This document shows, in pieces, positions 44,695 through 63,435 of a DNA stretch of 64,000 bases. The translations under genes and the position numbers were made by a program. The notes below the pieces were generated by a model. It saw only the letters and a list, made by a program, of their open reading frames with translations, was not told the DNA's origin and did not search any database. Source of the DNA: an uncultured bacterium. Its GTDB lineage: Bacteria; Zixibacteria; MSB-5A5; UBA10806. Location of the stretch: NCBI GenBank assembly GCA_965541585.1, contig CBEUCH010000002.1:96001-160000 (forward strand). Reading direction: 5' to 3'. Positions within the stretch are counted from its first letter, which is position 1. Each line of letters begins with the position of its first letter.

Positions 44695-46029
44695 GTGAAA
44701 GGCGATTTTTCGAGCTTCAATTTCAAGCCCGGCAGCAATTATCTATCGGTATTAAAGCAACAGGGGCGTGTTGATCTCGATTCGGACTGGAATGAACAAG
44801 CCGAGATCTTAAATGAGAAACATAGACAGTTTATTTGCGATATTCTGGGATATCTGGCCGTGCCGCTTTGTCCCAACAAGATTACCCGGGATAACTCAGG
44901 TGCGCTCAGAATAGATAAGTTCAGCAGAGGCCCCGGCGGGATTATCGATTTTTTCATTGGGCGCGGTATCGCTTATATCGGGGGCTATCCATGCTTATTT
45001 GAAAATGATATGATGTTCAGAGCCCAGCCCGATTATCCCGAACCTGAGATTCCGGACGGAGCCGGTGATATACTGGTCTACGTGGAAGCCTGGAACAAGA
45101 CAATCAGCTATATAGACGATGAGACCATCCGGGAATCGGCTCTCGGGGGGCCGGATACCTGCCTCAGAAAGAAACTTTTGGCGCAGGTGAAATTCAAGTA
45201 TGTGTCAGATGATATCGATACGCCCGGGCGGGCCTATAAGTATATTAATGACTCTTTTTCCGGGAACGATTTACTTCTTACGCTGAAAATTGAAGAGACT
45301 GCCCATCAGATTCCAATAGGCTTCGGAGAGGTCGACCCGGGAGGAGGGCTTATACCGGGTAATCTGCATTTTCGGGTTGAGCTTCACCGGGGAGCCGAAT
45401 CCAACGGCGGCTACAGCGAGGGATTTAAATGGTCCGATGAGAACGCCGCCACGGTGGTGAGAGTGTTGAAGGTGGCAGGTAACGACTCGTTGATCGTTGA
45501 GGAGGTGGAGGCCGTAACGGGTGAATCCCTGAAAAACGGGGATTGGGTTGAGATCTCGAATCTTATTACCGAGTATCACCGGGAGGGTGGCCAGATGGCC
45601 AGAATAGAGGCTATAACGCACGATGAAACAGGTCTTCAGGTAACCCTCGATTCCGAGATTCACCCGTTATTGAGGAGATCTCAGGTTGGCGGTAAATCGA
45701 AGTCTGAGTATTTCCTTGCCCCGAGACTGCGCCGGTGGTCAGGATATATTTCACCTGTATCTGCGAAAACGATTCACGACCTGGGACGAGGAATCAAGGC
45801 AAAGTTCCACGACGAAAGCAAAAAAGAGATTTTTCGTCCGGGAGACTACTGGACATTCGCAATACGAGACAGGGCCTATAACAAGCGGTTCGCTCCCAAG
45901 AAGGCGCCTGCGGACGGCATCGAGGTTTATCGTCACCCGCTGGCCATAATCAAATTCAAAGGCAAAAAGCAAATATCGAGGATCATAGACTGCCGGCGGT
46001 TCTTCAAACCGATAGCAGATTTTGATTAG
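44695..46029 (+). CDS. DUF6519-domain protein
   Basis: MKGDFS, KQQGRVDLDSDWNEQ, ALGGPDT, FKWSDENA, RRW and FRPGDYW; AAGGAG SD with GTG start. Confidence 0.8.
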   Translation: MKGDFSSFNFKPGSNYLSVLKQQGRVDLDSDWNEQAEILNEKHRQFICDILGYLAVPLCPNKITRDNSGALRIDKFSRGPGGIIDFFIGRGIAYIGGYPCLFENDMMFRAQPDYPEPEIPDGAGDILVYVEAWNKTISYIDDETIRESALGGPDTCLRKKLLAQVKFKYVSDDIDTPGRAYKYINDSFSGNDLLLTLKIEETAHQIPIGFGEVDPGGGLIPGNLHFRVELHRGAESNGGYSEGFKWSDENAATVVRVLKVAGNDSLIVEEVEAVTGESLKNGDWVEISNLITEYHREGGQMARIEAITHDETGLQVTLDSEIHPLLRRSQVGGKSKSEYFLAPRLRRWSGYISPVSAKTIHDLGRGIKAKFHDESKKEIFRPGDYWTFAIRDRAYNKRFAPKKAPADGIEVYRHPLAIIKFKGKKQISRIIDCRRFFKPIADFD

Positions 46030-46114: not shown

Positions 46115-49102
46115 TTAATCCGCTGTGGACTCCCGGCTAATCCCGGTTCTGGGATTTAATGAAGGGATTACAAGCAGCCCGTCCTCTCCCGGTGCTATCA
46201 AGCCGCCCTGCCCGGGGCAATCGGGACATCCGCTACCCGGCACAATTAAACCTCTGTATAAACCGATCTCGGTAACCACGTCGCCGAGCTCATTGGGTAC
46301 GCAGCTGCCGTTCGGGTCGGCATCAGGAGTGAAATCCTCGCCGTGGGACGGACAGTGGCACTCGTAAGTCGCTGTGATCGTGCCTCTGTACATACCGATC
46401 ATGGCGATAGCGTCGCCCAGCTCCAGCGGGACGCCGTTGTGGTCGCAATCGCCCACGAGATATTGGCAACTCGAAAATTCGCCGCACGGCGGTGCCAGAT
46501 TATCGCAGAGGGTGCTGGCGGCGAACCTGGTGCCGTCGCAGTCCAGAATGTGGACGTCATCCTCGCAATCACCGCTGGCGTCGTCGCAGCAGGCGCCGGC
46601 AGGGCCGACGACCTGGCAATCTACGATATCGATCTGGCCGATATAGGCTGCGCGGGCGATCATGTCCTCCTCGTTTGCGGCGCCGATGATTGCGATTTCA
46701 ATGCTTACCGACTCCCCGTCATTGAGCGTATAGGGGCCGGTGCTCAAAAGCGATGACATATCATCATACCAATCATCTGCCACACGGTCGCCATCGTAGC
46801 TCATGAGGGTGTAAAGATCCTCCATGAGCCAACCACCGACCGGTGGGTAGATGTAATCCTCCTGGCTGACGGCAGTCATGGAACGCAGGTTGACCTCATC
46901 GTCGTTAATCAGGCAAAGCCCCATAATATAAGAGAAGTCCGTAGCTCCCTGATACATGAGCTTATTTCCTCGGTCAAATACAACTGTGTCGAAAGAAGGA
47001 TAGACAACGTCCCAATCGAAGTAGACACCGGCGTAGTAGTCGCTGATTGTCGCGCCGGAATTATTGGTGATGGTGAAAATATGGATGAAGATATCGCCGG
47101 CCTGCACTACATCGGGGGGCTGGAATCCGATACCACAGTAATTGATATCAACACCACCCATAACGCCTTCATCGTCATAGGCGCACGTCGGGTGGAAGGG
47201 ATCCAATAGATTCAGGCTCTCAGTTCCCCTGTAGCGATAGCAATCGGTGGGAGTAGCGCCTGTCTGATTGTAATGAGAAAACATCCTCGCAGGACCATCT
47301 CCCATTACGAAGGTAGCGCCATGATTTGCCGGATCGATGCCGTAGCTATAATTATCATCCTGGTAATCGGGGTCGCCGAGCGGTCCGTAATTGCTGACCG
47401 CACAGTCCGGTATGTTGCCGGTCTCGGCCAGCCCCCGAGGTGTCATGGCTTCCTCGATCCTCAGATCGAAACTGGAAATACAATCAGGAGAGGGATAGCT
47501 ATCGATCATTATCCAGTAAGTGCCGGGCTGCAGGGTCAAATCTTCTAAACCGTGGGGAGCAGCTACGTTTGATGTCGATGAGGCAATACATTCGTTCGAA
47601 TCGGGCGGGCAAAAATCGTCTACCAGGATTCCTGTAAACGCATCGTCATGTGGGTCGAGAGTGATATCGAGCGTTATGACCTCAGAAACCGTAAACTCAT
47701 AGACGATATCCTCGCCGCCGTCATAGTCGTCAAGACAGGTATCGTCTTGGTCGTTTCCCGCGCCGCACGTCGTCCGACCTATATCGGAAAATGGCAATTG
47801 CGAGTTTATGTCGCCGATAACCACGTCCGGGTTGCATGGGGGCGTCGGCGTACATTCGACCCACATAGTATAATCGTTACCCAGAACACCGTTTCCATCA
47901 CATGCCAGATCCTCGGACCAGTCACTCGGCGCGATCCTTATCCAGTATATTCCGGGAAGCGCTTGCTCCAGTATCCGCGCCGTTTGGCAGCGGCCGACGA
48001 TCCGGGAGGTATACTGATAATCCTCGCAATCTTCGTTGCCCACGTCGTCGATGAATAGAAGCTGGAGCGGGAATTCGGCAATACCTCCAATTTCCAGATC
48101 AGATGGTGCAGTCACCTCGAACCTGTACCAGTCGATGTCGCGGTAAAGCCGATCCTCGCCCGGATTATCCGGATCTTCGCCCAGGAAAACGCCGCTCTTG
48201 CCGCATATTGTGTCGCCACATGCAATTTCCGTCCAGATCGGTTCCAGCGGCGGAACGGCATTACATCCGATGTTGAACTGATCGATATAATTATAGTGGC
48301 AATCCGGTTCGGCCTCGGGAATGCCGTTATCGGGGCAGGTAAGTTCGCATAACTGATCGGTGATCACAACGTCATCGAAAGAACAGGCATAACCCCATTC
48401 GGCGTAATAATGCATCGTCAGGGTATGTATATTGCCATCGGCGTAGTCGTCCAGTATCACCGAACGAATTCCCATAAATGGAATATTATCAGGCGCCTGG
48501 ACGAGATCGGCCTGTTCGCCATCGATAAGGACCTCGAAGTAATCCACGGAAGGGACATAAGCCCTGAAATACAACCAGTAGCTCAGAGTTAGCTGGCTGC
48601 CAACAGGAGTTGAAAAGTCGACGGAAATTTCCTCATCTGTGGTCGATCCGAAGCCACCGCCGTAGGAATCTGAACCGACCATATAGCCGCCGCCCTGGTT
48701 CTCGATGTGACCCCAGGCGTAGTCCCAGGGATCCGGGCGAATTACCCAGTCCTCGGCGCCGCTGCCATCGCCATTGCTGACAGCGGTCCAGGCCGGGTCG
48801 TTTGTGAAATCGCCGTCCTCGAAATCATCGTAAAGCCAGTCAGTCAGGAAAAGGGGACGTTGCCCCGGTAAGAGGATAGAGGAATCGAAGAACCGTTCGG
48901 TCTTTATAGGGCTTTGCCGCACAGTGCCCCGGTTACTTGCTTGAGGCTTAACTGCGGTGGTCGGCAAACGAAGAATGCCCGTTCTCGCTGGTTCGGCCAG
49001 GGCCGAAACCGTCTTGCCTTCAGCAGCAAGAACGGCCTGCCAGGCGAACAAAGCGAGGGCGAGAGACGAAGTAAATCTTATCTTCATATCAATCTCGGCC
49101 AC
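46115..49102 (-). CDS. Large acidic Cys-rich secreted multidomain protein with C-terminal dockerin-like domain
   Basis: Signal peptide, PPC-like domains (DIDWYRF, EDIVYEF, PGTYWI), a GACC module, and tail GDCDHNG..LELGD / ADPNGSC..ELGD. Confidence 0.8.
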   Translation of the reverse strand: MAEIDMKIRFTSSLALALFAWQAVLAAEGKTVSALAEPARTGILRLPTTAVKPQASNRGTVRQSPIKTERFFDSSILLPGQRPLFLTDWLYDDFEDGDFTNDPAWTAVSNGDGSGAEDWVIRPDPWDYAWGHIENQGGGYMVGSDSYGGGFGSTTDEEISVDFSTPVGSQLTLSYWLYFRAYVPSVDYFEVLIDGEQADLVQAPDNIPFMGIRSVILDDYADGNIHTLTMHYYAEWGYACSFDDVVITDQLCELTCPDNGIPEAEPDCHYNYIDQFNIGCNAVPPLEPIWTEIACGDTICGKSGVFLGEDPDNPGEDRLYRDIDWYRFEVTAPSDLEIGGIAEFPLQLLFIDDVGNEDCEDYQYTSRIVGRCQTARILEQALPGIYWIRIAPSDWSEDLACDGNGVLGNDYTMWVECTPTPPCNPDVVIGDINSQLPFSDIGRTTCGAGNDQDDTCLDDYDGGEDIVYEFTVSEVITLDITLDPHDDAFTGILVDDFCPPDSNECIASSTSNVAAPHGLEDLTLQPGTYWIMIDSYPSPDCISSFDLRIEEAMTPRGLAETGNIPDCAVSNYGPLGDPDYQDDNYSYGIDPANHGATFVMGDGPARMFSHYNQTGATPTDCYRYRGTESLNLLDPFHPTCAYDDEGVMGGVDINYCGIGFQPPDVVQAGDIFIHIFTITNNSGATISDYYAGVYFDWDVVYPSFDTVVFDRGNKLMYQGATDFSYIMGLCLINDDEVNLRSMTAVSQEDYIYPPVGGWLMEDLYTLMSYDGDRVADDWYDDMSSLLSTGPYTLNDGESVSIEIAIIGAANEEDMIARAAYIGQIDIVDCQVVGPAGACCDDASGDCEDDVHILDCDGTRFAASTLCDNLAPPCGEFSSCQYLVGDCDHNGVPLELGDAIAMIGMYRGTITATYECHCPSHGEDFTPDADPNGSCVPNELGDVVTEIGLYRGLIVPGSGCPDCPGQGGLIAPGEDGLLVIPSLNPRTGISRESTAD

Positions 49103-49338: not shown

Positions 49339-49863
49339 ATGCTATTGAAGCTTAAGATCAAATCACCGGTACTGAAGTCTCTTGCAAAACTTTACATAGC
49401 CTTCGGCGCGATTCTGGTTTTTTTTATTGTCATCTTTAACACCCAGATCTTTTACTTGAATGTCAACGTCCCTTTTACATCATTCATCGTTCTTTCATCC
49501 AGCTTTTTGATAAATCTGTTCGGAGGAACCTCGTTCGTTGACGGCACTCATCTGTCCACCGCGCAGTTCGGCATCAATGTCGTCGACGGCTGCAACGGGA
49601 TCTATGCCACGGCCATACTACTGTCGGGCGTTATCGCGTATCCCGCCAGGCTGACCCATAAGATGCTGGGTGTGCTTGTTGGAATTGTCGCCATTTTCGT
49701 TCTCAACCTGGTGCGGGTGATAAGCCTTCTATATCTCGGGCAGTATTTCCCCGATATATTTAAAGAAATTCACGTTTTTATCTGGCAGCCTATCATAATC
49801 CTGTGGGCGATCTATATCTGGTATTTGTGGTGGCACAAGATTGAAGGCAAAGAAGCCAAATAA
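49339..49863 (+). CDS. xrtH: Exosortase H
   Basis: Hydrophobic protein with GCNG (Cys), NLVR (Arg) and H.FIWQ (His); IPTL-CTERM substrates occur in the window. Confidence 0.85.
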   Translation: MLLKLKIKSPVLKSLAKLYIAFGAILVFFIVIFNTQIFYLNVNVPFTSFIVLSSSFLINLFGGTSFVDGTHLSTAQFGINVVDGCNGIYATAILLSGVIAYPARLTHKMLGVLVGIVAIFVLNLVRVISLLYLGQYFPDIFKEIHVFIWQPIIILWAIYIWYLWWHKIEGKEAK

Positions 49864-50431
49864 ATGGTTTTTTCTTCTCAGGTTTTTGATCGCCTTTGCG
49901 ATCATTTACCTGCTGTGGAATTTCTCGGCTCCCCTCGCGAATAGAGTGTTTACATTTTTCGGCGGAAATATCCTGATGCTGTTTGACGGCGCAAACTATA
50001 CCAGGGCAGTTGAGCCCGACGGTGAATTCATTGTTGTTGTCTTCGGGGCCGGCAAAAATGTTGAAACGCTCAATCTTGAGTACAAGGGATTCACATTCAA
50101 CACCGTATTATTGCTGGCGCTGATTCTGGCGGTGCCGGATGTGAATTATAAACTCCGCCTGAAGATATTGATTCTTGGTATGGTAGTGCTATACCCGATA
50201 CAGATTATCAGGCTGGTCATTTTCATTTTCAACTACTATTGCCAGAATATGGGGCGACGAGGCGGGGGTACCTTATACCCTCAGTTTACGCATAATGCGA
50301 TCGGCTATGTCGATAAAACGCTGATAAGGATTGATGGCCAGATAATACCGGTATTCATATGGGCTGGATTATTTTATTATTACAAGTGGCATAACGTATT
50401 TACCAAAATGATGAAAAAGAGATCCGCCTGA
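49841..50431 (+). CDS. Exosortase H-associated membrane protein (exosortase-like, no catalytic Cys)
   Basis: Overlaps xrtH. 'LALILAVP...QIIR' parallels the XrtH topology, but there is no GCNG. Confidence 0.7.
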   Translation: MKAKKPNKWFFLLRFLIAFAIIYLLWNFSAPLANRVFTFFGGNILMLFDGANYTRAVEPDGEFIVVVFGAGKNVETLNLEYKGFTFNTVLLLALILAVPDVNYKLRLKILILGMVVLYPIQIIRLVIFIFNYYCQNMGRRGGGTLYPQFTHNAIGYVDKTLIRIDGQIIPVFIWAGLFYYYKWHNVFTKMMKKRSA

Positions 50432-50582: not shown

Positions 50583-50792
50583 TTACTCTTCCTCCTTTGA
50601 CCGTCTACCGTAGTAGATCCAGAGATGAACGATGTAGGCGATGATAATCATACTGATCAAAGTGCCCGCAAGATCCATAGTGGTAATTGAACCGGCTATC
50701 AGAACAACGCCGGTTATACCGGCGATAGCAACTACAAAAGCCACAGCCAGGACCCTGAAGAACACCGAGGGTATGAAAATCGGTTCGCCCAT
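50583..50792 (-). CDS. Small two-helix membrane protein (69 aa)
   Basis: TGATG stop/start overlap with the upstream IPTL-CTERM gene. Confidence 0.7.
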   Translation of the reverse strand: MGEPIFIPSVFFRVLAVAFVVAIAGITGVVLIAGSITTMDLAGTLISMIIIAYIVHLWIYYGRRSKEEE

Positions 50793-53626
50793 CAGTTGGC
50801 TCTTGTCAAAGCAGTTTTACGCCTGCGAACAATAGCGATAGTTCCGGCGGTCAGCAACATCAACCCAAGTATGATCATACCCCATTCGGAGAGGGTGGGG
50901 ATGGCTTCGACGACATCATGCGGCGGCCAGATATCATGCTGCGCGCAACCGGCAGGTTCTACAAGCGATGTTATGGGTATAGAGTGATTCACCGCCGGTT
51001 CGGCGCATTGGACACACGGTATTGCCTGAAGTCCGGGTATTAGATCAACAGCGCTGGGACCGATCGGTATGTCAGGTATATCGTCGCAATTACTCACTAA
51101 ATCGCCGACGCTTGATGTATACACGCCGAAGCCCGGATCTGAAAACATCCAGTGACCGTCTTCGATATTCATTAAATCAATGGCCGGGATTCCGTAATCA
51201 CCGTAATCAACATAGTATTCTAAAGCGTCGGATACCCGGGTAAAGACGATTTTCGGGACTACGGGTACATAGGCAAAAAACGTGCCTCCTTCTTCACAGA
51301 CCCGGTCAAAGTTCATTCCGCCTGTTGGCTGCCCGCGGGATTCTGACAGGCACACCTTGACATCCCACGCTTCAGGATTTTGGCCGCCGTTGTAAGTTAC
51401 CGTTATAGGTTGACTACTCACTAAACTCAGCGCCACTATCTCGATATCTATATTATGATCCTGAGAGGGACACTGAGGTAGATTTGCGACTCTACTTCGT
51501 TTGATTATTGTGTCGGTGGGCCCTAAATTCCCGTTAGTCGCCAGTGGCTCACCCTCTAAAGCAATAGTACCGGCGAAAGGATCCGAGCCGGGCCCGAAGA
51601 AGTCAGCCGGTATCGGGAGTGTGCTTTCCCCGCAGCCGAGATTCACAAATGTATTGTAGCCTTCCGGCGTTTCCCACAAGTCGTAAACCGGATCTTCTTG
51701 CACTGGACAATCTACATCAACACAGTTCAGGCCGGGGTAGAAGACGCCGCCGTTATCCTCGCAGATAGACTGGGTTTCCATTGTGCATAAACCATCGGGC
51801 CAGCAGCAGGCGCCTGTTTCCTGAACCGGTTCACTGGTGATGCAGAACGACAGGTCGAGCGATTGCTGACCCGACGGCAGGCATTCGTGCTCGATAATCC
51901 CGGGCTCGTTATCCCAGATTACGAAGTTAAATCCCCTGACATCTACGGAGACCCACTCCGGGTTATACTCCTCAATTAAAAACCCGAAGAACTCAAATAT
52001 TTCATAACCGTTTGGAAGGTCGCTCATAACAACCGGGAAGCGCTCAATATGTATTTCATCAGTCGGTTCAGTCGGTGGGGGCTCACCTGGCGGCCACTCA
52101 GGACCTGACCAGTTGATGGCGATCTCAACCCAGGCGGGAGCCCCGGGATCTAATTTCCATACCGAGCCCATTATGGAGATTTCCTTGTAGCGCGTGAGAT
52201 CGAGCGGGTCATTGTAGAACCAGATATTCCACCAACCGCTGGGGTACCAGAACCATCCATTGATACCACCAGGGCCATTGTAATAATCGGTACCTCCGCT
52301 CATCCCGGGAACGAGCTGCCCGCTTTGATCCATCCCCACCCAGAAGGAGTTGACGACCGGCCCGCCGCCTCCACCGGGCTCGTAAATCTCCGTCCAGAGG
52401 TCAGGAGGAAGCGGGGCATCGGGATCCGGGCCCCAAACCGCATCGTCCATCCAGTGATCCTGGGTTGATTTCCATCCCCAGTGTGTGTTAACCGGATCGA
52501 CGACATCGGCCGAAATCCTCAACCAGTAAATTTGGCCGACTGTCTGCACGCATGGTTCAGGCAGGAAGTAATCGTAACGGAAATATTGCTGGTGGTCACC
52601 GGGGATAATCTCGCCCTGGACAGGATCATACCATCCCTGTGGAGACGGATCCATAAGGGTGGTGGTGTATTCCCCTTCCAGTATATACATCGGGGGGCAG
52701 ACAATTTGGCCCGGTACGCTCCAGCCGTTTGGTCCCACGGGGATATTGTCGTGGATAGTGATCCAAAAGCCCCGGAGTTGGCCGATATCATCATGCCTCC
52801 ACGAACCCCACCAATGGATATCCTCGAGCTGGCCCGTCTCCGTGCACTGCCAGTCATCCGCCAGAGAGATGGGAGCGGTGGCATTAACGTCCCAACCGTT
52901 GGGATCCGGCAGCTGCGGGAAATGCATCTTGTGGTTTGCGCAATCACCGTCTTGGCAATTGGGAGAGTTTGTCTCGGTATCTACCCAGAAAAGCGGAGCG
53001 CCGCCAGAATAATAACTGCTCCACATATACCAAGTGCCCCCAGAATACGCCCAGTGCTCACATGGGACCGGGGGACAGATGAGTGGTTCATCCATTAAAA
53101 ATGAAGGAAGGCTTCCCCCAGGATCGCTATATTCAATACCGATATAGACCGGTCCGTTAACACAGCAGGGAGTCGAATAAGTTAATGGACCCACAGTGGG
53201 ATACTCATAAGTGGCGGCATCACAGATAAAAGTCTCACGGCAGAGTTCCGCGCCGGGTCCCGCGCATGGATCTCCGGGAATCAGCATATCGTATACCACG
53301 AAATCAACCTGAACCGGAAACGGCAAAGCGCCATCGTCATAAAGAGTAATCCACAGTGTAGTTATTTCAAGAGGGTATGTTGGAGCCGGGCAAACCGCCC
53401 ATGGATCATAATATGTGATTGCGCGGTCGCCAGTAACCAAGCCTGGATTATAGTAGCCCGGAATATTGCATGTCTTCGTAAGCAGGCAATAATCAAGAGT
53501 GGTCTGCGGCTGTTCGATAGGCAGTACCTCGCCTATTCTCGAGCCTTTTAGTTCACCCTTCGCCATGGCTGCAGTGCCGAGGATCAGGACAAGGCCGAGG
53601 GTTAAAATCAATGACTTTTTAAGCAT
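50792..53626 (-). CDS. Large multidomain surface protein with IPTL-CTERM sorting signal
   Basis: Signal peptide MLKKSL...AAMA (GGAGA SD), HKMHFPQLPD...LADDW domain, GACC module, then IPTLSEWG, a TM helix and RRRK. Confidence 0.88.
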   Translation of the reverse strand: MLKKSLILTLGLVLILGTAAMAKGELKGSRIGEVLPIEQPQTTLDYCLLTKTCNIPGYYNPGLVTGDRAITYYDPWAVCPAPTYPLEITTLWITLYDDGALPFPVQVDFVVYDMLIPGDPCAGPGAELCRETFICDAATYEYPTVGPLTYSTPCCVNGPVYIGIEYSDPGGSLPSFLMDEPLICPPVPCEHWAYSGGTWYMWSSYYSGGAPLFWVDTETNSPNCQDGDCANHKMHFPQLPDPNGWDVNATAPISLADDWQCTETGQLEDIHWWGSWRHDDIGQLRGFWITIHDNIPVGPNGWSVPGQIVCPPMYILEGEYTTTLMDPSPQGWYDPVQGEIIPGDHQQYFRYDYFLPEPCVQTVGQIYWLRISADVVDPVNTHWGWKSTQDHWMDDAVWGPDPDAPLPPDLWTEIYEPGGGGGPVVNSFWVGMDQSGQLVPGMSGGTDYYNGPGGINGWFWYPSGWWNIWFYNDPLDLTRYKEISIMGSVWKLDPGAPAWVEIAINWSGPEWPPGEPPPTEPTDEIHIERFPVVMSDLPNGYEIFEFFGFLIEEYNPEWVSVDVRGFNFVIWDNEPGIIEHECLPSGQQSLDLSFCITSEPVQETGACCWPDGLCTMETQSICEDNGGVFYPGLNCVDVDCPVQEDPVYDLWETPEGYNTFVNLGCGESTLPIPADFFGPGSDPFAGTIALEGEPLATNGNLGPTDTIIKRSRVANLPQCPSQDHNIDIEIVALSLVSSQPITVTYNGGQNPEAWDVKVCLSESRGQPTGGMNFDRVCEEGGTFFAYVPVVPKIVFTRVSDALEYYVDYGDYGIPAIDLMNIEDGHWMFSDPGFGVYTSSVGDLVSNCDDIPDIPIGPSAVDLIPGLQAIPCVQCAEPAVNHSIPITSLVEPAGCAQHDIWPPHDVVEAIPTLSEWGMIILGLMLLTAGTIAIVRRRKTALTRAN

Positions 53627-53728
53627 TAAATTCTCCAATTCTAATTGCTTGAATTTATTGTGCTGTCGAGTCTCAATATTCGGCAACTTTAATATCAGGT
53701 GCAGAGACTCAACACCGCATCTGGATGT

Positions 53729-54415
53729 TTAGCTCATCCCGGGAGGTTTAATCGGCGGCGCACGGAGATTAGGTAAATAGTCCCATCTCTTTGTTGAACT
53801 GATACCTTCAAAAAGCGGAAATAATTTTCTTGCCAAGGGAAATCTCAAGCCCGCAATTGAGAATCGGATTCGGCTTACATACTCGATAAGCATGAGAATT
53901 ATGGAGTTAACAAGCACGATGAAAAACGAGATCATCAATAAGCCGAAAAGAGATGCAAACCGGATAAGCTCGCTCGAATCGGCCGTCGGGAAACTTAAGA
54001 CGCCTCCCATGCCCGGGTACCTGATCAAGAAATATTCAAGAGGAACCCATATGGCGGCGACAAAAACAGGGTTAAATCCGATATATTTTTTTGCTCCATT
54101 GACGGCCATTCCGAAGATTGAAAAGACCAGGCTCAATAATAATAGATTAAGGAGAAAGTCCGCGGGAGCGGCCAGAGCCTCGCCAATGAAAGCGACGAAG
54201 GCATAGCAGCCGGCAAGAATCACACCCAGCAGAATAGAACCGGCCAAGGTTGTTCTGTTCAATTGCCACAGGAGTGGAACCAGGGCAAATAGCGATATGA
54301 ACCAGTATTCAGGATATATATGGGCAATCGATAGGATTAAAGCCGACGTTCCGGCGCAGATAAAATGAGCCAATAGTCTCACCGTGATATCGTTATGCCT
54401 TGAATCCGCATCCAT
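53729..54415 (-). CDS. Lnt N-terminal membrane-domain-only protein with C-terminal RAPP motif
   Basis: WFISLFALVPLL, AIWVPLEY and ASLFG...SFFIVLVN match the Lnt membrane part. There is no nitrilase domain, and the protein ends NLRAPPIKPPGMS. Confidence 0.78.
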   Translation of the reverse strand: MDADSRHNDITVRLLAHFICAGTSALILSIAHIYPEYWFISLFALVPLLWQLNRTTLAGSILLGVILAGCYAFVAFIGEALAAPADFLLNLLLLSLVFSIFGMAVNGAKKYIGFNPVFVAAIWVPLEYFLIRYPGMGGVLSFPTADSSELIRFASLFGLLMISFFIVLVNSIILMLIEYVSRIRFSIAGLRFPLARKLFPLFEGISSTKRWDYLPNLRAPPIKPPGMS

Positions 54416-54726
54416 TATTTTTGTCTGTCTCCGGCGATGAGGCTCCTCCCTCTATACCGTACCAGTGAGCGGGACCATTGACGCATAAATCTGCGGACGG
54501 ATGCGCGGCTTTACCAATGAGCAGAAGGCGACTCCAGATAGGCTACTAATATTAATTTTGTGCCTCCTGTGAGGCTAATCTGTTTCTCTGACAGCCTTGA
54601 TCACGTGATGCGAAGTCTGTGAACCCGCCGTCAGATAATCAATTACAAGCCCTGGCTTCAGCCTGAAGAGATTTAGTTGTGAAAGTGTGTTGAGTCAGAA
54701 ATGCTCAATCATCAATTTCTAATATT

Positions 54727-54755
54727 AAGATAGGCGACCCACATTTACTTGTCAA
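54727..54755 (-). promoter_or_regulatory. Promoter about 300 nt upstream of the Lnt-like gene
   Basis: TTGACA-N17-TATCTT, the same hexamers as the pdxS promoter. Confidence 0.55.
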
Positions 54756-55009: not shown

Positions 55010-58000
55010 ATGGGGTTGCGTATAATTGTCCTTTCCTTATTTATCCGGGCCACAGCTCTCGGGGTCGAGAGTGGCGATTTTACTTTTTATGACGGCGAAT
55101 CGACTGTAGCCGCCACCGTTCAGCAAGTGGATCGTACCGTTTTAAACCTTCAGATCTCGAACCTCGAATATGAAGTTGATAGCGATAACGGAATAGACCA
55201 ATACCGGATTCATTTGCCGGAGGTGTTTGGCGTATCGAGGGGAGCATTTCTGAGTTCGAATAATGTGTTGATCCCTACCATAACCAGATCCATTGCCGTA
55301 CCGTTTGATTCGGAGCCGGTGTTCCGTGTGACCTGGTCGAATTTTGTGGAATTGACGGATATAGTACTTGCGCCTGCAGGCGAGGAGGAATTGGATTCGT
55401 ATTCCAACGGCAATGAGAATATCTCATCGAGCCTCGAGAGGGACCTGGTGATCGCGGAAACGGCGGGGATGATGCGGGATGTAAGAATATATTCTCTGAC
55501 GATCTCGCCGGTGCAATATGATTTGGAAAGCAAAGTCGTTAAAGTCTATAACGAAATTGAAATCGAGATCGACCATGGCGGTTCACGGATGGTACGTTAC
55601 GAGGACCATATATCGGAGGCTTTCTTGCCGATCTATCGCTCGTTTCTGGATAATCTCCTGGTGTTCGACCCGATTGAGGTAACCCGTGGCGCCGACTGGA
55701 TCATATACCCCGATCCTTTCCTCGAACATATACGGCCCATAGCGGAATGGAAAAGGGCCAAGGGTTATGATGTTGAATATATTGCCAAAAGCGATATTGG
55801 CTCCAACCCATCGTATGTGGCTATAAGAGACTATATCTCGGCGCGTTTCGACTCGTGTCAGATTAAGCCGGATTATATTACCATCCTGGGAGACGTCAGC
55901 ATGCCGTCCGGTTATGGAATCCCTACGCGACACTATGATAATCCTCTGGGTTTTGGCGATATAGAATCGGATAATTACTATACGTTTCTCCTGGGTGGCG
56001 ATTATTTCCCGGATGTGTTAATAGGGAGAATAGCCATAGACTACGTTGCCGAGCTTGAGGATTACACGGATAAGCTTTTCACATACGAGAGAACCCCGTA
56101 TATGGATGATACACGCTGGTATTTGAGGGGGACCATGGTCGCGTATTGGGAAGTCGAAGGCGACGGCGGCTGGTATGGAAATTTCACAAGCCCCAGAATC
56201 ACGAAGCTCTGGTGTCGCGATCGCATGTTTGAAAGCGGATATATCCAGGTAGATACTCTTTTCGAACATCCCCGGTATTATGTTCCTTCCAGCCAGATCA
56301 ACGCCTCTATAAACAATGGCGTATCCTATGTGAATTACCGCGGCTTTGGCGATCCATCCGGATGGAGTTACCCTTATTACACATTTAATGATATTAGCGA
56401 TCTTACCAACGGTCCCATGTATCCTATAATGACATCCATCGTTTGCGGGACAGGAGACTATAATGACTACCGCGACATCTGTTTCGGCGAGGCCTGGATA
56501 CGCTATCCGGACAAGGGCGGGGCAGGATTCATTGGCACCAGTAACCACGATGCTCACACGCGATGGACTAACGCTCTGGATGTAGGTATTTACTGGGGCC
56601 TGTTCGTAGAACATGCAACGACTATTGCCCAGGCCCAACTAATGGGAAAGATGACGATGTACGACGCTTTCCCAACCGACCGTTATCCCAACGGCCAGGT
56701 CGAGCTTTATTTCAATAGCTACAATATCCTTGGTGATCCGGAGTTGAATTGCTGGACCGGAGTGCCGAGAAGCATGTCGGTGGCTCATGCCGATTCGGTG
56801 GAATTCGGTCAGAATTATATAAGCGTATCCGTCACCGATAATATGGGGGGCACGCCTCTCGAGGGAGCTTATGTCTGTATATGGAAAGATGGGGAACTGT
56901 TCCTTGGGGAATTTACTCCCGCGGACGGTGTCGCTGAATTCGCGGCCGGACCGGATACCAGGGGCGAGATGGCCTTAACGGTTACTGCCCGCGACTTTGC
57001 CCCTTATGAGGGAACCGTTACCTATTTCACCAGCGAGATAACAGTGGGATACAATTCTCATACGGTTGACGACAACAACGAAGGCGAGTCCTCAGGCAAC
57101 GGCGACGGAATCTGCAGCCCGTCGGAGGTTGTAGAGCTCGACCTTACCCTTGAAAATTATGGCCAATCGGAAACCGCTATCGGGGTGACCGCGGAGATAT
57201 CGTCGGATAACTCTCATGTGGAGATTGTGCGCGCTACAGCCGGTTTCGCCGATATTTCTCCGGGCGAGAGCAGCCCCGCCGATAATCCTTTTTTAATAGA
57301 GGTTAGCCCCGACGCACCAAACGGGACAGGTATCGATCTTATCATTTCCATAAGCGATGAAGATGATAACGCCTGGGAATCCATTATACAGTTGCCCGTT
57401 GAAGCGGCCGAATTCGCAATGGAAGAATTGATCATTCAGGATGACGGCAACGGTATGATAGATCCGGGAGAAACGGTCGAGCTTGTAATAACTCTCGAGA
57501 ATGTCGGTGCACAGCCCATGGCGGGAGCGACCGCGGTATTGAGAACGTCCGACGATCAGGTGACGGTTATGGATTCGACAGCCTTGTTCGGCGACTGCGT
57601 TCCCGGAGGGACTTTCGACAACGATGGCGACACGTTTATGTTAACGGTGGAATCCGATATTTATGTAGGACATTTGATAAACTTTACTCTGGAGTTCGAG
57701 GGCGAGGGGCCGCAAATAGTAACATCCGCTTTTGCCGAACAGGTAGGTGCTGTATCGTCGAGTGATCCCATCGGCCCGGACGATTATGGGTATTACTGCT
57801 TCGATAACACCGATTCTGCCTATTCCGATCGCCCGGTATATGACTGGATTGATATCGATACTCAGAACTGGAATCACGTAACATTGGGCGACGACAACAC
57901 GGAGACGATATCGCTGCCGTTTGAGGTTTGGTACTATGGGCAGATTTTCAGTGAGATCACCATCTGTGACAACGGCTTTGTGGCCCTGGGCGAATCCTGG

Positions 58001-58705
58001 TGGAACGCCTGGTACAATACGTCGATTCCCGCACCTCAGAACGCCGCCGCTATGATCGCGCCTTTCTGGGATGACTTCAATCAGAGCAATCTTAGAGTAT
58101 ATTACCATCACGATACCGACAACTCCCGCTTCATAATCGGGTGGAATAATGCCTGGGACCAGGACGTTTACCGGTACCAGACATTCGAGATAATCTTTCT
58201 GGATCGAACCGCCTGGCCGTCCGCCACCGGCGATAACGAAATAATCTTCCAGTATGAGCTTGTTAATAGCGCTTATTCGTCGTCGGTGGGGATCTGTTCC
58301 CCCGATAGAAGAGATGGTATCGGTTATATTTTTAATGGCGATTACGCTGATGGTGCGGCAACCCTAAATAACACCCGGGCCGTGAAATTCACGACCGGAT
58401 CTCTATACCAGACCGGTATTGAGGAAGAGCAGGAGTTGCCGGAGAGCATGGCGCTATCTCAAAACTATCCTAATCCCTTTAATGCCTCTACCTCCATCGA
58501 TTTTTCGATTCCCGGGGAAGGACACGTAAAGCTCGAGGTATTCAATATCCTCGGGCAGAGGATCGCCATCCTGATCAATGGTCATCTGGATGCGGGCTTC
58601 CATCGGATTGCATGGGGCGCTGACGATTTGCGTTCGGGGATTTACTTTTACAGGCTGGAGACCGGTGATCTGACCGAAACAAAGAGAATGATGCTTTTGA
58701 AATGA
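55010..58705 (+). CDS. Second gingipain-like C25 peptidase with T9SS/FlgD-like tail
   Basis: WKRAKG, YITILGD, SIVCGTG, YNILGDPEL, DPIGPD.YGY and NYPNPFN; GGAGG SD. Confidence 0.88.
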   Translation: MGLRIIVLSLFIRATALGVESGDFTFYDGESTVAATVQQVDRTVLNLQISNLEYEVDSDNGIDQYRIHLPEVFGVSRGAFLSSNNVLIPTITRSIAVPFDSEPVFRVTWSNFVELTDIVLAPAGEEELDSYSNGNENISSSLERDLVIAETAGMMRDVRIYSLTISPVQYDLESKVVKVYNEIEIEIDHGGSRMVRYEDHISEAFLPIYRSFLDNLLVFDPIEVTRGADWIIYPDPFLEHIRPIAEWKRAKGYDVEYIAKSDIGSNPSYVAIRDYISARFDSCQIKPDYITILGDVSMPSGYGIPTRHYDNPLGFGDIESDNYYTFLLGGDYFPDVLIGRIAIDYVAELEDYTDKLFTYERTPYMDDTRWYLRGTMVAYWEVEGDGGWYGNFTSPRITKLWCRDRMFESGYIQVDTLFEHPRYYVPSSQINASINNGVSYVNYRGFGDPSGWSYPYYTFNDISDLTNGPMYPIMTSIVCGTGDYNDYRDICFGEAWIRYPDKGGAGFIGTSNHDAHTRWTNALDVGIYWGLFVEHATTIAQAQLMGKMTMYDAFPTDRYPNGQVELYFNSYNILGDPELNCWTGVPRSMSVAHADSVEFGQNYISVSVTDNMGGTPLEGAYVCIWKDGELFLGEFTPADGVAEFAAGPDTRGEMALTVTARDFAPYEGTVTYFTSEITVGYNSHTVDDNNEGESSGNGDGICSPSEVVELDLTLENYGQSETAIGVTAEISSDNSHVEIVRATAGFADISPGESSPADNPFLIEVSPDAPNGTGIDLIISISDEDDNAWESIIQLPVEAAEFAMEELIIQDDGNGMIDPGETVELVITLENVGAQPMAGATAVLRTSDDQVTVMDSTALFGDCVPGGTFDNDGDTFMLTVESDIYVGHLINFTLEFEGEGPQIVTSAFAEQVGAVSSSDPIGPDDYGYYCFDNTDSAYSDRPVYDWIDIDTQNWNHVTLGDDNTETISLPFEVWYYGQIFSEITICDNGFVALGESWWNAWYNTSIPAPQNAAAMIAPFWDDFNQSNLRVYYHHDTDNSRFIIGWNNAWDQDVYRYQTFEIIFLDRTAWPSATGDNEIIFQYELVNSAYSSSVGICSPDRRDGIGYIFNGDYADGAATLNNTRAVKFTTGSLYQTGIEEEQELPESMALSQNYPNPFNASTSIDFSIPGEGHVKLEVFNILGQRIAILINGHLDAGFHRIAWGADDLRSGIYFYRLETGDLTETKRMMLLK

Positions 58706-58802
58706 TATCCGGCAAGATAGTGGTTGGTCTTTCAGGAAGATGCGCAGCATTTAACATGTTGAAAGACAAAATGATAAGGGCGCAGATGACGCCCTTTTCA
58801 TA

Positions 58803-58830
58803 TTGACGAAAAAACGTTTTTGATTATATT
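58803..58830 (+). promoter_or_regulatory. Promoter of the M14 gene
   Basis: TTGACG-N16-TATATT. Confidence 0.55.
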
Positions 58831-58875
58831 GAATTGATGAAAGAAATTATCGATAAGTTGTTCAAGGAGTTTTCG

Positions 58876-60729
58876 ATGCGATCTGGCATGCTGATTTTCG
58901 CAGTATTGATCCTGCTCTCATATGCTCCCGAGTCTGGCGCTCAACTTCCTGAAATATATACCAGGTACAGCGATGCTCTGCAAACCCTGGCGGATCTGCA
59001 GGGAGATTATCCGGAGATCTGCAAGCTGGATACCATGGGTTATTCCACCCGTGACTCCATCCCCATGCTGAGAGTCAAGATTTCGGACAACGTTAACATT
59101 GACGAAGATGAACCTGCGATCTTCTATTGCGGGGGAGTCCACGCCGACGAGGTGTTGAGCGTGGAGGTCGTTATGTCATTTGTACAGGATATTCTGATTC
59201 GTTACGGGCGTGGAGATCCCGATGTCACCCGCTATATAGCCAGCCTCGAAATATTCTGTATCCCGTTCATCAATCCCGAGGGGCATATAGTGGTGGAGGA
59301 GGGGGATACCGAATGGCGCAAGAACAAATGTGACAACGACGACAACGGGATATTCGATTTTCACGACGGCGTCGACAACAACCGCAACTATGATTTCGGC
59401 TTTTGGATAGACGACGGCCCCAACGCCACCACTCCGGAATCTCTCACGTACAAGGGCGAGGCTCCGTTCACCCAGACCGAGAATATCGCTATGGCGGAGT
59501 TCGGATGGAAGTATCGGCCGCTTATAGCGCTGGATTACCATTCGCCGACCTACGGCAGACCCAACGTGGCGTATTATCCGTGGTACTGGTATGCCAATGA
59601 AGGCGGTAATGGTTTCGGCCCCGATGAAACCCTGATGCAATCTGTCTGCGCATTATTTGCATCATTAATAGAAGCCATACCGGATGATTCGGGCAACGGC
59701 ACTTATACGGCCAGGAGGGCTCTGGTCAACAAAGGTGATTTCAAGACATATTTCTACGGTAACTTCGGAACTGCGGCCTTTTCGGTGGAGGTTTCCGACA
59801 CTACGATCCAGAACCCTGCTCTGGTTGACACAATAGTCGCCGCTCATCTTCCGGGGCAATATTATCTTCTCGAGCGGGCTCTGGGTGCAGGTATTACAGG
59901 GGTCATCCGGGATTCTGTCACGCTGGAGCCGATCGAGGCGGAGGTGCAGGTTCTCCAGCATATTAACGCTGATATCAATCCCCGTCTGTCCAGGCCTGAT
60001 TACGGACGCTATCGCCGGCTGCTGTCTTCGGGAAGCTATACATTGAAGTTTCTCAAAGACGACTATAGAACCATAACGGTCTACAATGTCGGGGTGACGA
60101 ACAGCGGGCCGACCGAGGTCAACATGCTTCTATCCCCGCTGTATCCGCGGCCGCCGGCGCCGGTTTTGAGCTACCCGCCCGAGGATACGACCTTAAATGA
60201 CAACCTGGTGGTTTTCGACTGGAATCCATCGGATCTGGCGGATTTCTATCTCTTCGAGCTTTATCAGCATCCGGACCTGGAGACTCCGGTATATGTCGAT
60301 TCCTCCTTAATTGATACATCGTTCACTCTCGACACCCCTCTTTCGGATACGGTTTACTACTGGATGGTTAAAGGGGGCAACTCCAACGGCTGGGGCCCGT
60401 ATTCGGATCTGTGGATGTTCGTTGTGAATACCGAGACGGGAACAGATGATCCCGTCCACCAGCCTCGCGCCTTTGAGTTGTATCAGAATCATCCCAACCC
60501 GTTTAATACCTCCACCCTGATCGAGTACAATCTGCCTTCAGCTTCGGATGTAACGCTTGAAATTTACAACATACTCGGTCAGAGGGTAGCGATACTTTTG
60601 GATAGAACCCTGCAGGCCGGGGAGCATAGTATCAAATGGGATGCATCCGGTTTTCATTCCGGCGTCTATTTTGTGAGGCTGGAGGCTGAGGGGTATACCG
60701 AAAATATCAAGATCGTATTGCTAAAATAG
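58876..60729 (+). CDS. Secreted M14 zinc carboxypeptidase with regulatory-like and FN3-like domains and T9SS/FlgD-like tail
   Basis: HADE, NPEG, WRKN, NRNY, DYHS and VEV; AAGGAG SD before ATG 58876. Confidence 0.9.
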   Translation: MRSGMLIFAVLILLSYAPESGAQLPEIYTRYSDALQTLADLQGDYPEICKLDTMGYSTRDSIPMLRVKISDNVNIDEDEPAIFYCGGVHADEVLSVEVVMSFVQDILIRYGRGDPDVTRYIASLEIFCIPFINPEGHIVVEEGDTEWRKNKCDNDDNGIFDFHDGVDNNRNYDFGFWIDDGPNATTPESLTYKGEAPFTQTENIAMAEFGWKYRPLIALDYHSPTYGRPNVAYYPWYWYANEGGNGFGPDETLMQSVCALFASLIEAIPDDSGNGTYTARRALVNKGDFKTYFYGNFGTAAFSVEVSDTTIQNPALVDTIVAAHLPGQYYLLERALGAGITGVIRDSVTLEPIEAEVQVLQHINADINPRLSRPDYGRYRRLLSSGSYTLKFLKDDYRTITVYNVGVTNSGPTEVNMLLSPLYPRPPAPVLSYPPEDTTLNDNLVVFDWNPSDLADFYLFELYQHPDLETPVYVDSSLIDTSFTLDTPLSDTVYYWMVKGGNSNGWGPYSDLWMFVVNTETGTDDPVHQPRAFELYQNHPNPFNTSTLIEYNLPSASDVTLEIYNILGQRVAILLDRTLQAGEHSIKWDASGFHSGVYFVRLEAEGYTENIKIVLLK

Positions 60730-60890
60730 CGGCGGCACCAGTCTTGGTTTTACCGCCAGACCAAACTTGTTGATTTCCGGCAAGCACAAAAGGCTTGACT
60801 TCTAAATATCTTTTATTACAATATTTATAGGCATAATCATGAAATAGCAGCGCGATTTGACCGCGAGAATAAGTACCTCAATTGGAGGTT

Positions 60891-63056
60891 ATGATGAGAA
60901 GGACTAAAGTTTTATTGTTGGCGATGTTATGCTTTTCAATCGCCGGTTTAGCATCCGCCCAGAATGTTGAGTATGTCAACTCAACGCTCTGGAATGGCTT
61001 GGGGGAGGTCAAAATCGTCGGCGATTATGCATACTGTGCCTTTTACAATGGCTTGATGATTCTTGATGTCACGAATCCGACCTCTCCATCTGTGGTGGGC
61101 CAGGTAGTTGGTCAAGGTCATGGAAATGGATTAGACGTTTCAGGTGATTACGCGTACCTGGTTAATACGTACGAGGATCTGCAGATAATAGACATCGCAA
61201 ACCCTGCCCTCCCGATATTATTAGGAAGTTACAGCACGCCGAGTGACGCTTCCGGTGTTTTTGTGGTCGATAACTACGCATACATAGCGGATGGCTATTC
61301 TGGCCTGCAGATCATAGACGTTGCCGATCCTATGAATCCGACATTTGTGGGGAGCTACGACACGCCGCACTTTGCCAAGGACATCTTCGTGGTTGGTAAT
61401 TACGCCTACGTGGCTAATTCATCTACTGGCCTGCTAATAATCGATATCGCGGATCCTGAAGATCCAACATTGGCGGGAAGCTACAATACTCCAGGATACG
61501 CTCAAGCAGTCTTTGTGGTCGGCGATTATGCATATGTTGCGGATGGTAGCTCCGGCGTACGGATAATCGACATCTCTAACCCGGCCTACCCCACACTGGA
61601 AGCAAGTTATGACACGCCAGGTTATCCTTCTGACATATATGTAATGGGTAGCTACGCTTTTGTAGCTGATGGTGATTCTGGCCTGTATATAATCGATGTC
61701 TCGAATCCTTCGAACCCCACTCATGTGGGGAATCACGATACGCCTAGGGATGCCACAGGGGTTTTCGTTACCGGCGAGCATTGTTATATTATTGACTATG
61801 ATCTTGTCCTGCAGATAATTGAGATCACCGATCCTTTCAATCCGATACTGGCAGGGAGTTTCGATACGCCTGGTTATGTACAGAGTGTTTTCCTTGCCGG
61901 GAATTACGCCTATGTTGCAAATCACATTTCAGGCTTGTGGATAATCGATATCAGCGACCCCGCCAGCCCAACACCGGTGGGATTTCACGATACACCGGAT
62001 AATGCTCGTGACGTTTTCGTGTCAGATAGTTACGCCTACGTGGCTGCTCATATTTCCGGCCTGCAGATAATAAACGTCGCCGATCCGGCCAACCCGACAT
62101 GGGTAGGAGGTTACGATACACCTGGTTCTGCGACGAGCGTTTTCGTCGACGACAATTACGCTTATGTGGTTAATAGTATTAGTGAGGGTGGCCTGCAAAT
62201 TATCGACGTCTCCAATCCTGCCAGCCCGACACTGGCGGGAAGTTATGATACGCCCAATAATGCTTATGGGATTTTCGTTGACGGCGGTTACGCTTACGTA
62301 GTTGAGGGATATGCCAGCGTGGAGAGTTGGGGTCGACTGCACATAGTTAGCATTGCCGACCCTGCGAATCCGGCTCTGATCGGAATTTATGAAACAGGTT
62401 TGCCCGGAGGTGTCTTTGTTGCCGGTAGTTATGCCTATGTAGTTTGCACTGATTATCGTCATTTCGAACCCGATATTTATAGTCTGGTGATAATTGATAT
62501 CGATGACCCTGCGAATCCCACAACAGTTGGAAGTTATGAAACACCAGAATTTGCCAGCCGCGTAGTTGTGGCTGGCAATTACGCCTATTTGGCTGTCAAT
62601 TATTATGGCGGCCTGCAGATAGTCGATATTGCCGATCCTGCGAATCCAACTCTGGCGGGAAGCTACGACACACCGGGCTGGGCTCGCGGCATTTCAGTGG
62701 ACGGCGATTTTGTATATGTAGCTGATCGCCATTCGCTAATGGTCCTTAGTTTTGGACCTGAAAATGATATTGAGGAGTGGAATGATCTCCCCCGAGAGTT
62801 CTCACTTGGGCAAAACTACCCCAACCCGTTCAATGCTTCCACCCTGATCGAGTACAATTTGCCTTCAGCTTCCAATGTAAGAATCGAAATCTACGACATC
62901 CTTGGCCGCAAAGTTGAAACGCTTGTGGACCAAAAAAAGCAAGCCGGTTATCATCAGATTACGTGGAATGCCTTTGACAAATCCTCGGGAATGTATTTTT
63001 ATAAGGTTCGGGCGGGGGAGTATACCGGGACGAAGAAGATGGTGTTGTTGAAGTAG
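60891..63056 (+). CDS. Secreted LVIVD-repeat protein (14 blades) with T9SS/FlgD-like tail
   Basis: Paralogue of 33496-35601 with the same QNVEYV.STLW start, 14 units and an NYPNPFN tail. Confidence 0.92.
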   Translation: MMRRTKVLLLAMLCFSIAGLASAQNVEYVNSTLWNGLGEVKIVGDYAYCAFYNGLMILDVTNPTSPSVVGQVVGQGHGNGLDVSGDYAYLVNTYEDLQIIDIANPALPILLGSYSTPSDASGVFVVDNYAYIADGYSGLQIIDVADPMNPTFVGSYDTPHFAKDIFVVGNYAYVANSSTGLLIIDIADPEDPTLAGSYNTPGYAQAVFVVGDYAYVADGSSGVRIIDISNPAYPTLEASYDTPGYPSDIYVMGSYAFVADGDSGLYIIDVSNPSNPTHVGNHDTPRDATGVFVTGEHCYIIDYDLVLQIIEITDPFNPILAGSFDTPGYVQSVFLAGNYAYVANHISGLWIIDISDPASPTPVGFHDTPDNARDVFVSDSYAYVAAHISGLQIINVADPANPTWVGGYDTPGSATSVFVDDNYAYVVNSISEGGLQIIDVSNPASPTLAGSYDTPNNAYGIFVDGGYAYVVEGYASVESWGRLHIVSIADPANPALIGIYETGLPGGVFVAGSYAYVVCTDYRHFEPDIYSLVIIDIDDPANPTTVGSYETPEFASRVVVAGNYAYLAVNYYGGLQIVDIADPANPTLAGSYDTPGWARGISVDGDFVYVADRHSLMVLSFGPENDIEEWNDLPREFSLGQNYPNPFNASTLIEYNLPSASNVRIEIYDILGRKVETLVDQKKQAGYHQITWNAFDKSSGMYFYKVRAGEYTGTKKMVLLK

Positions 63057-63088
63057 GCCTTTAGTTATGTTTAAAGAGGGAGACAAGT

Positions 63089-63196
63089 ATGGGCGATAAG
63101 GGAAAAAAGGATAAGGGTAAAAGAGAGCAGCAGAAAAAGAGCAAGCATAGCTTATTGGAAAAGCGAAAACTTAAAAAAGAAAAAAAGAATAAATAG
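63089..63196 (+). CDS. 35-aa Lys-rich small protein (not in the ORF track)
   Basis: GAGGGAG SD, sequence MGDKGKKDKGKREQQKKSKHSLLEKRKLKKEKKNK, and a downstream terminator. Confidence 0.65.
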   Translation: MGDKGKKDKGKREQQKKSKHSLLEKRKLKKEKKNK

Positions 63197-63227
63197 AACC
63201 TAGAATAACTGAGAATGACAAAACCAT

Positions 63228-63257
63228 GGGGAGTTACATCGACTCCCCTCTCTTTTT
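63228..63257 (+). terminator. Intrinsic terminator
   Basis: ggggagt...actcccc followed by tctcttttt. Confidence 0.7.
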
Positions 63258-63324
63258 GCCCTGTCACTCGCCGGCTGGGCATTTGCCCGGCATGTTAAGT
63301 ATGCGGGTGGCTACGATACGCCGG
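63253..63324 (+). pseudogene. Remnant of an LVIVD-family gene 5' region
   Basis: Aligns by eye to 33529-33577, followed by codons for GGYDTP. Confidence 0.6.
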
Positions 63325-63435
63325 TCAACATTAAAGGCTTGACTTCTAAGTAGTTTCTATTATCTATAGTTGTAGACACAATCAGGATATTGCAGTTGCG
63401 GTTGGCAACAAGGATAAATACCTCGCCCGGGGGAC

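Follow-up and report, generated by a model that had tools for sequence, protein, structure and literature searches.

Sec, YidC, and a small number of metal operons have established arrest-peptide monitors. MifM, which we take to be a Sec/YidC-monitoring substrate, presumably has the same arrest-core layout as the leader described here. ApdA, ApdP, and SecM have in common with this leader an arrest core and, at a set distance upstream, a localization signal (available text of PMC10951233 and PMC10987492), and stalling is described as occurring when RAP occupies the P site and Pro the A site (available text of PMC10951233). RAPP leaders upstream of diverse, non-Sec genes form a described class (Fujiwara et al.; available text of PMC12992588), in which the RAPP/RGPP arrest peptides are shorter than 300 aa, are targeted to the membrane, carry a C-terminal R[AG]PP, and are followed by a codirectional gene. 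All seven of the S. lividans C-terminal RAPP/RGPP proteins that were tested arrested, mostly not on E. coli ribosomes, and four of the seven carry four transmembrane segments; RAPP by itself is insufficient for arrest, which can be species-specific. In Bordetella, the RAPP uORF CruR (Bp2923, DUF2946) heads a non-Sec operon, as our leader does, and its arrest keeps downstream expression on via Rho (available text of PMC9426467). The genome of our leader encodes Rho, as in the CruR system. CruR has a CxxC metal site, whereas our leader has no CxxC, no sequence homology to CruR, and no family-wide C>G bubble. The leader family shares the small size, membrane targeting, C-terminal motif, and codirectional downstream gene of the RAPP/RGPP class but, unlike the described groups, it has a domain of six helices that derives from an enzyme, and its downstream genes form a class recognized by their sorting tag. 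We propose, with a probability of roughly 0.6, that an intact, Lnt-derived six-helix protein stalls its own ribosome at RAPP and thereby sets the expression of exosortase H cargo.

The window analyzed is a stretch of 64,000 nt from an uncultured Zixibacteria bacterium. The leader open reading frame (P0001; positions 53729 to 54415, minus strand) encodes a stand-alone LNT_N protein of 228 aa, present as one copy in the source genome. Its translation ends in ...WDYLPNLRAPPIKPPGMS at the stop codon, with LPNLRAPPIKPPGMS as the C-terminal residues of the minus-strand product. A Pfam search of the 228-aa protein returned LNT_N as the sole match (residues 24 to 171, E 1.8e-10) and no nitrilase domain. 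A six-helix membrane domain homologous to Lnt H1 to H6 (residues about 13 to 178; 53882 to 54379) ends with the last transmembrane helix, H6 (residues about 153 to 178; 53882 to 53959), as placed by structure model and hydrophobicity. It is followed by a spacer of fixed length and about 10% identity at the place of Lnt H7 (residues 179 to 217; 53765 to 53881) and by the arrest-type RAPP motif (residues 218 to 221; 53764 to 53753; codons CGT GCG CCG CCG), after which come seven codons and TAA. An intergenic spacer of 102 nt (53627 to 53728), with a local hairpin (53713 to 53665) that is not conserved among family loci and a GGAG (53636 to 53633), leads to the ATG (53626) of the cargo gene (50792 to 53626) on the same strand. 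The 944-aa cargo protein has a signal peptide, DUF7901, and a C-terminal IPTL-CTERM sorting signal (50819 to 50905; PF18203 E 1e-6, TIGR04174 E 3e-6), and a terminator-like hairpin, a consensus match only, follows the gene (50708 to 50724). Thus, the first-pass annotation, which had described an Lnt-like membrane segment stopping where the nitrilase domain should begin, RAPP seven codons ahead of the stop, and an IPTL-CTERM gene about 100 nt downstream on the same strand, agrees with the domain search, with the coordinates and TAA, and with the measured 102 nt.

We take exosortase H (XrtH) here as its family models characterize it. Convergent with the leader-cargo unit, on the plus strand, lie xrtH (49339 to 49863; TIGR04177, 97.6 bits, over the cutoff) and the gene for an exosortase H-associated membrane protein (49841 to 50431; NF041730, over the cutoff). 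A DUF6519 gene and the gene for a 995-aa secreted protein without a Pfam match adjoin xrtH in the region of 44695 to 46029 and 46115 to 49102. Divergent from the leader promoter, positions 55010 to 64000 hold a run of secreted-protein genes (a C25 gingipain-like peptidase, an M14 carboxypeptidase, and an LVIVD-repeat protein) with Por_Secre_tail-like C termini.

The structure model of the leader has six helices (pLDDT 84.5). Its best structural match was Lnt (Z 12.4, rmsd 5.2, 168 residues aligned), followed by ECF S-components (Z 7.4 to 11.1, rmsd about 4, 141 to 166 residues aligned); for helical bundles, Z values below about 13 may mean a common arrangement only. Foldseek ranked Lnt first, but at E > 0.05. 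Profile comparison (hhalign) with 12 Lnts gave 98.5%, with H1 to H6 retained, the E-x-x-R...FPW lid motif lost, and a polar spacer sitting at the place of H7. Measured against the Lnt architecture in the available text of PMC5500888, both proteins have the H1-H6 cylinder with its N terminus inside, whereas Lnt also has H7, a nitrilase domain with its catalytic triad, H8, and the lid motif; since the leader is without all of these, it cannot be an acyltransferase. The cylinder of the P0001 model that aligns with S-components spans residues 5 to 186, and no paper linking the Lnt and S-component folds was found in the literature covered, which takes in a minority of subscription papers.

The S-component matches could be taken to mean that the cylinder binds a small molecule or lipid as an ECF S-component does, in the manner of the CruR precedent, and releases the arrest independently of XrtH activity. 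Their Z values, however, lie in the range of a possible common arrangement, the conserved leader residues are mostly small or structural, and the 36 unrelated passenger groups described below speak against one nutrient, so that we regard such a sensor as very improbable. Domain searches gave no sequence-family match to ECF S-components, the family alignment has no invariant polar ligand-binding residue, and alignment and Pfam revealed no conserved Cys, DUF2946 domain, or CxxC in the family.

Judged by sequence, the leader belongs to a stand-alone family with two subfamilies. The first protein search, restricted to proteins of 125 to 399 aa, gave 58 relatives of 130 to 280 aa. The short form is not an artifact of this length window, because an unbiased profile search (133 representatives at E ≤ 1e-30) had only proteins of fewer than 300 aa among its best 150 matches. 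Leader-family matches occur in 74 of 285 Zixibacteria genomes, with up to seven per genome, and the second subfamily comprises 109 proteins, six of them source-labeled Phycisphaerae or Planctomycetes. In the ESM Atlas, LNT_N clusters of 216 to 235 aa are labeled Chloroflexota, Aminicenantota, and Pseudomonadota, and these may be Lnt fragments. Of 127 pattern matches in viral contigs, none was a relative, and plasmids gave no match.

The first-pass annotation had allowed that a frameshift or nitrilase remnant might reveal simple pseudogenization. Some family members are source-labeled "apolipoprotein N-acyltransferase" (others hypothetical), and the homology to Lnt H1 to H6 is clear; both would fit a decaying lnt, or else a finished membrane protein in which R-x-P-P serves as a nontranslational binding motif. 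The evidence goes against decay. In 16 close pairs, dN/dS was 0.03 in the motif (25 synonymous and 2 nonsynonymous changes), 0.09 to 0.24 in the membrane domain, and 0.44 in the spacer. An intact Lnt is encoded on another contig of the source genome, and in a quick-search tree a long branch (SH-aLRT 99) stood between 12 host Lnt N-domains and 40 leaders. Purifying selection, the second, intact Lnt, and the long branch together rule out a pseudogene or frameshifted lnt. Loss of the catalytic lid motif, a substitution spectrum in the motif that equals the arrest-permissive set, and the invariant place directly ahead of the cargo likewise count against this alternative in either form, and we give it almost no credence.

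Conservation in the C-terminal region is concentrated in the motif. R, P, and P were invariant in 57 of 57 relatives from the first search, one fragment being left out. Among 135 near-full-length aligned proteins (fragments excluded), the motif read RAPP in 80, RGPP in 39, RSPP in 9, RDPP in 3, and another x-x-P-P in 4; identity was 85% in the motif, 15% just upstream, and 7% right behind it, and the tail after it ran from 0 to 50 residues. The 88 genomic copies had RAPP (55), RGPP (26), RDPP (2), RSPP (2), and RTPP, RVPP, and PDPP (1 each). R-x-P-P was thus present in 87 of 88 genomic copies, as it was in 28 of 28 further copies and in all 109 subfamily 2 proteins (RAPP 57, RGPP 50, RPPP 1, RHPP 1). 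The question raised at the outset, whether RAPP/RGPP persists in homologues lacking the CN-hydrolase domain, is therefore answered in the affirmative. Position 2 is nearly always A, G, S, or D. Mutagenesis of ApdA/ApdP found Arg irreplaceable, full arrest with Gly, and partial arrest with Ser, Asp, or Pro (available text of PMC12992588), and the match of the family's position 2 spectrum to these arrest-permissive residues supports reading the motif as an arrest core. In the source genome, R[AG]PP occurs 3 times in 2,001 long ORFs (913,679 residues) versus about 14 expected, and the leader's RAPP is the only one near a C terminus among those ORFs. The gene's identity as a putative arrest-type leader is well supported.

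The motif might be conserved only as a DNA or RNA site, but this was rejected as the main cause: none of the third codon positions is fixed, and the residue at position 2 can be A, G, S, or D. Codon usage is nonetheless skewed. The motif Arg (53764 to 53762 in the window) is CGN in 85 of 87 and in 28 of 28 copies, the comparison values being 25 of 46 for an invariant XrtH Arg and 43 of 65 for another leader Arg, and the motif Pro codons are biased to CCG/CCT in family loci. The bias suggests an extra constraint at the codon or RNA level.

The distance between H6 and the motif is kept in both subfamilies despite the low identity of the spacer (9.6% in its core among the 135 proteins). From an Asn in H6 to the motif Arg it is 48 in 120 of 135 proteins and 47 to 51 in 134 of 135; in subfamily 2 it is 49 in 99 of 109 and 48 to 51 in all 109, while other loops there differ in length by as many as about 90 residues. 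The argument from spacing is weaker in subfamily 1, because other segments there are also nearly free of indels. Five subfamily 2 leaders (P0304, P0307, P0313, P0315, and P0318; one labeled Phycisphaerae) have low-complexity loop inserts of 30 to 90 residues with the H6-to-motif distance kept. The first-pass annotation had counted about 37 residues from the last helix to RAPP; the placement stood, and the figure is refined to 38 to 41 residues between the hydrophobic end of H6 and the Arg, or about 43 to the P-site Pro, a distance that holds family-wide. Helices cease pulling at about 45 residues (available text of PMC7886326), which would set the stall at the final phase of H6 integration.

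This geometry could also belong to a generic insertion monitor like MifM, the version put forward in the first-pass annotation, in which integration of H6 by SecYEG/YidC frees the stall and tunes cargo to insertion capacity. An H6 end inside the force window and a spacer of fixed length but free sequence are what such a monitor would have. One helix would do for it, however, yet a six-helix bundle is under selection; the next gene in every copy read is sorting cargo, never sec or yidC; and extra cargo upon insertion failure is hard to rationalize. We therefore consider it rather unlikely that the leader only monitors insertion.

Among the 88 genomic copies, 83 had a complete next gene. Of the encoded proteins, 80 had a signal-peptide-like start and 79 an IPTL-CTERM-type tail, called by our own motif-helix-basic rule and with the consensus P-x-L-T-x-W-G. 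Pfam IPTL-CTERM matched 42 of 87 downstream genes at E ≤ 0.01, and many of the others had weak matches to XrtH-substrate models. The four tail-less genes encode large or dockerin-like secreted proteins and come from two multicopy genomes. A later set of 20 copies had the tail in 17 of 18 complete genes, the 18th having the signal in mid-protein, and metagenome loci, partly redundant with the genomic sets, had it in 28 of 31 complete genes. Overall, more than 100 relatives directly precede a surface-protein gene with an exosortase H-type tag. The proposal that exported-protein genes lie downstream of such leaders is borne out by these counts, as is the proposal that an Lnt-domain leader stands ahead of a surface-protein gene instead of secDF or yidC, since no copy read had secA, secDF, or yidC as its next gene. 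The surface-protein link is in fact more specific than had been claimed, being to exosortase H cargo and often to xrtH itself. By BLAST, the passengers of the cargo genes form 36 mutually unrelated groups, which are intermingled in the leader tree, indicating that the sorting tag is conserved and the passenger is not.

A side branch of leaders precedes tail-less secreted proteins of 390 to 1,630 aa, DUF6073 or dockerin-like (loci L081, with three tandem units, L079, L086, and L063:8825-9988); each L081 and L063 unit has its own promoter box. At L245:1775-2977, the gene behind a leader encodes a midcut-by-XrtH-type protein whose IPTL signal sits close to the N terminus. The leader itself has no look-alike of the sorting signal (profile probability <1%; best score 4 bits versus a median of 59 for real tails). 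The cargo tail had no detectable homology to Lnt H8 (probability 0.3%), leaving the H7/H8 analogy topological only.

The gene for the sorting enzyme tracks the leader across genomes, and it often shares an operon with it. Of the 285 genomes, 114 have xrtH: 72 of the 74 with a leader versus 42 of the 211 without one, counts that are not independent because the genomes are related. The two leader genomes without xrtH are 69% and 86% complete. The 42 xrtH genomes were negative with the first profile, and some later yielded divergent leader copies. At 39 of 118 leader matches, xrtH lay within 8 kb, in 20 cases downstream on the same strand, in 13 convergent, and in 6 upstream. Twenty extra loci, taken around weak matches or around xrtH of leader-negative genomes, comprised 6 codirectional runs of leader, gene, xrtH, and associated protein, 1 leader without evident cargo, and 13 leaderless loci. 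The relation between leader and cargo is one-way, in that few IPTL-CTERM genes of the source genome have a leader (1 of 33). That genome has a single xrtH for 33 or more IPTL-CTERM genes, many of which lie in tandem clusters with unrelated passengers. Sec/YidC monitors precede the gene for a machine, often a localization enzyme; at our loci the first downstream gene is cargo, and a C-terminal sorting enzyme plays the part of the machine, its gene following codirectionally at those 20 of 118 matches.

About 310 nt ahead of the leader start lies a promoter-like site of the sigma70 type, (C)TTGACA-17-TATCTT (54727 to 54755, minus strand). CTTGACA occurred within 600 nt upstream of 74 of 84 leader copies, versus 199 of 1,976 ORFs and 7 of 31 IPTL genes of the source genome, and in 13 of 25 copies of a more divergent leader set. 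A promoter box followed by a leader is what one would expect where a strong promoter is combined with posttranscriptional control. In the 5' untranslated region, a hairpin GCCTC-loop-GAGGC with AGGAGG (54562 to 54575, minus strand) is conserved in three same-genus genomes, as are further stretches of the untranslated leader, which is roughly 310 nt long. A GGA near the loop of this hairpin resembles what we take to be a CsrA-type site.

Motif and cargo start are 68 to 229 nt apart in 79 loci, and with 68 nt as the minimum the cargo start would stay outside the footprint of a stalled ribosome. In Sec/YidC monitors, an mRNA hairpin hides the Shine-Dalgarno (SD) sequence until the stalled ribosome opens it. 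The leader loci revealed no hairpin, terminator, or Rho signature common to the family. An intrinsic attenuator common to the family was rejected, since terminator-like sites are scattered and occur in only 13 of 88 loci; family loci had no folding excess and, outside the Pro codons, no Rho C>G bubble; and Rfam, run on 20 leader loci, returned a single tRNA and no riboswitch or known RNA. Pairing between the stall footprint and the cargo SD sequence exceeded 0.3 in 19 of 78 loci. It was higher than after synonymous recoding (0.17 versus 0.076, p 0.03) but did not exceed a head-swap control (0.16 versus 0.12, p 0.62). CTCC occurred in the footprint in 36 of 79 loci versus 32 expected. In the window, CCTCC lies at 53746 to 53742, and its predicted SD pairing is weak (0.17).

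These RNA-level results bear on whether anything is sensed at all. A stalled, inserted chain could act as a constitutive tether, keeping the mRNA at the translocon for synthesis of an abundant surface protein at the membrane. Most copies indeed have the near-consensus promoter box, cargo signal peptides are nearly general (80 of 83), no conserved RNA switch was seen, and the cargo start is never covered. Tethering alone, however, leaves unexplained why, out of many secreted proteins, XrtH cargo is picked almost exclusively, and it does not account for the folded six-helix domain with its fixed spacer; we think it improbable.

Our preferred reading is that an Lnt-derived leader stalls its own ribosome and sets exosortase H cargo expression, and its steps differ in how firmly we hold them. 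Stalling would very probably set in once RAP occupies the P site and Pro the A site. At the stall, docking of H6 into the H1-H5 bundle would more likely than not supply the releasing pull. Release may then report on the XrtH route, through the condition of its enzyme, its cargo tails, or its lipid cosubstrate, and not on general Sec/YidC load, which we hold to be a real possibility that falls short of an even chance; sensing of this route is favored because the folded cylinder is retained and because one sorting system recurs whatever the passenger. A long stall would raise cargo expression, with the dwell time setting its level. As one output option, the stalled ribosome might shield the transcript from Rho, as in CruR; as another, at some loci, it might cover C-rich codons that pair with the cargo ribosome-binding site. 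More tentatively still, we hypothesize that the Lnt cylinder has been repurposed as a cotranslational monitor of the exosortase H pathway, whose engagement would release the RAPP stall, and that the promoter-plus-leader cassette has spread across at least two phyla. Candidate partners of the nascent bundle are the anchoring lipid, XrtH, and unprocessed cargo tails, the last of these at the surface on which H7/H8 pack in Lnt. Exosortase-family enzymes have been tied to lipid anchoring in archaea (available text of PMC7157517 and bioRxiv 2023.06.07.544157), so that a lipid cue is plausible for a domain derived from Lnt. XrtH itself may act likewise.

No description of the leader family was found in the literature covered, a minority of subscription papers included. 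The available text of PMC10987492 does not mention it, and the available main text of PMC12992588 names neither Lnt nor exosortase nor Zixibacteria. In the same paper, IPTL-CTERM falls outside the top 30 RAPP groups given in the available text, and at least six rows of the source list for its Fig. 4B (2025; available part) have an IPTL-CTERM downstream gene and, judged by eye, resemble leader-family members. On the sequence evidence, the family is a putative RAPP-class arrest leader, with the Lnt-derived domain and the exosortase H cargo as its new features.

The leader is likely a translation-arrest switch for surface proteins. The family couples a putative arrest peptide to a C-terminal sorting enzyme and recycles the membrane domain of an enzyme as a leader, and the proposed role would give a function to a large family labeled hypothetical or Lnt. 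With more than 200 natural variants of fixed geometry, it is suited to stalling and spacer tests in vitro and is a natural test of what pulls RAPP arrest peptides beyond Sec/YidC. As a sensor of the XrtH pathway, the leader would point to the exosortase H cosubstrate. If the proposal is true, a sortase-like surface-anchoring system would be under feedback control by ribosome arrest.
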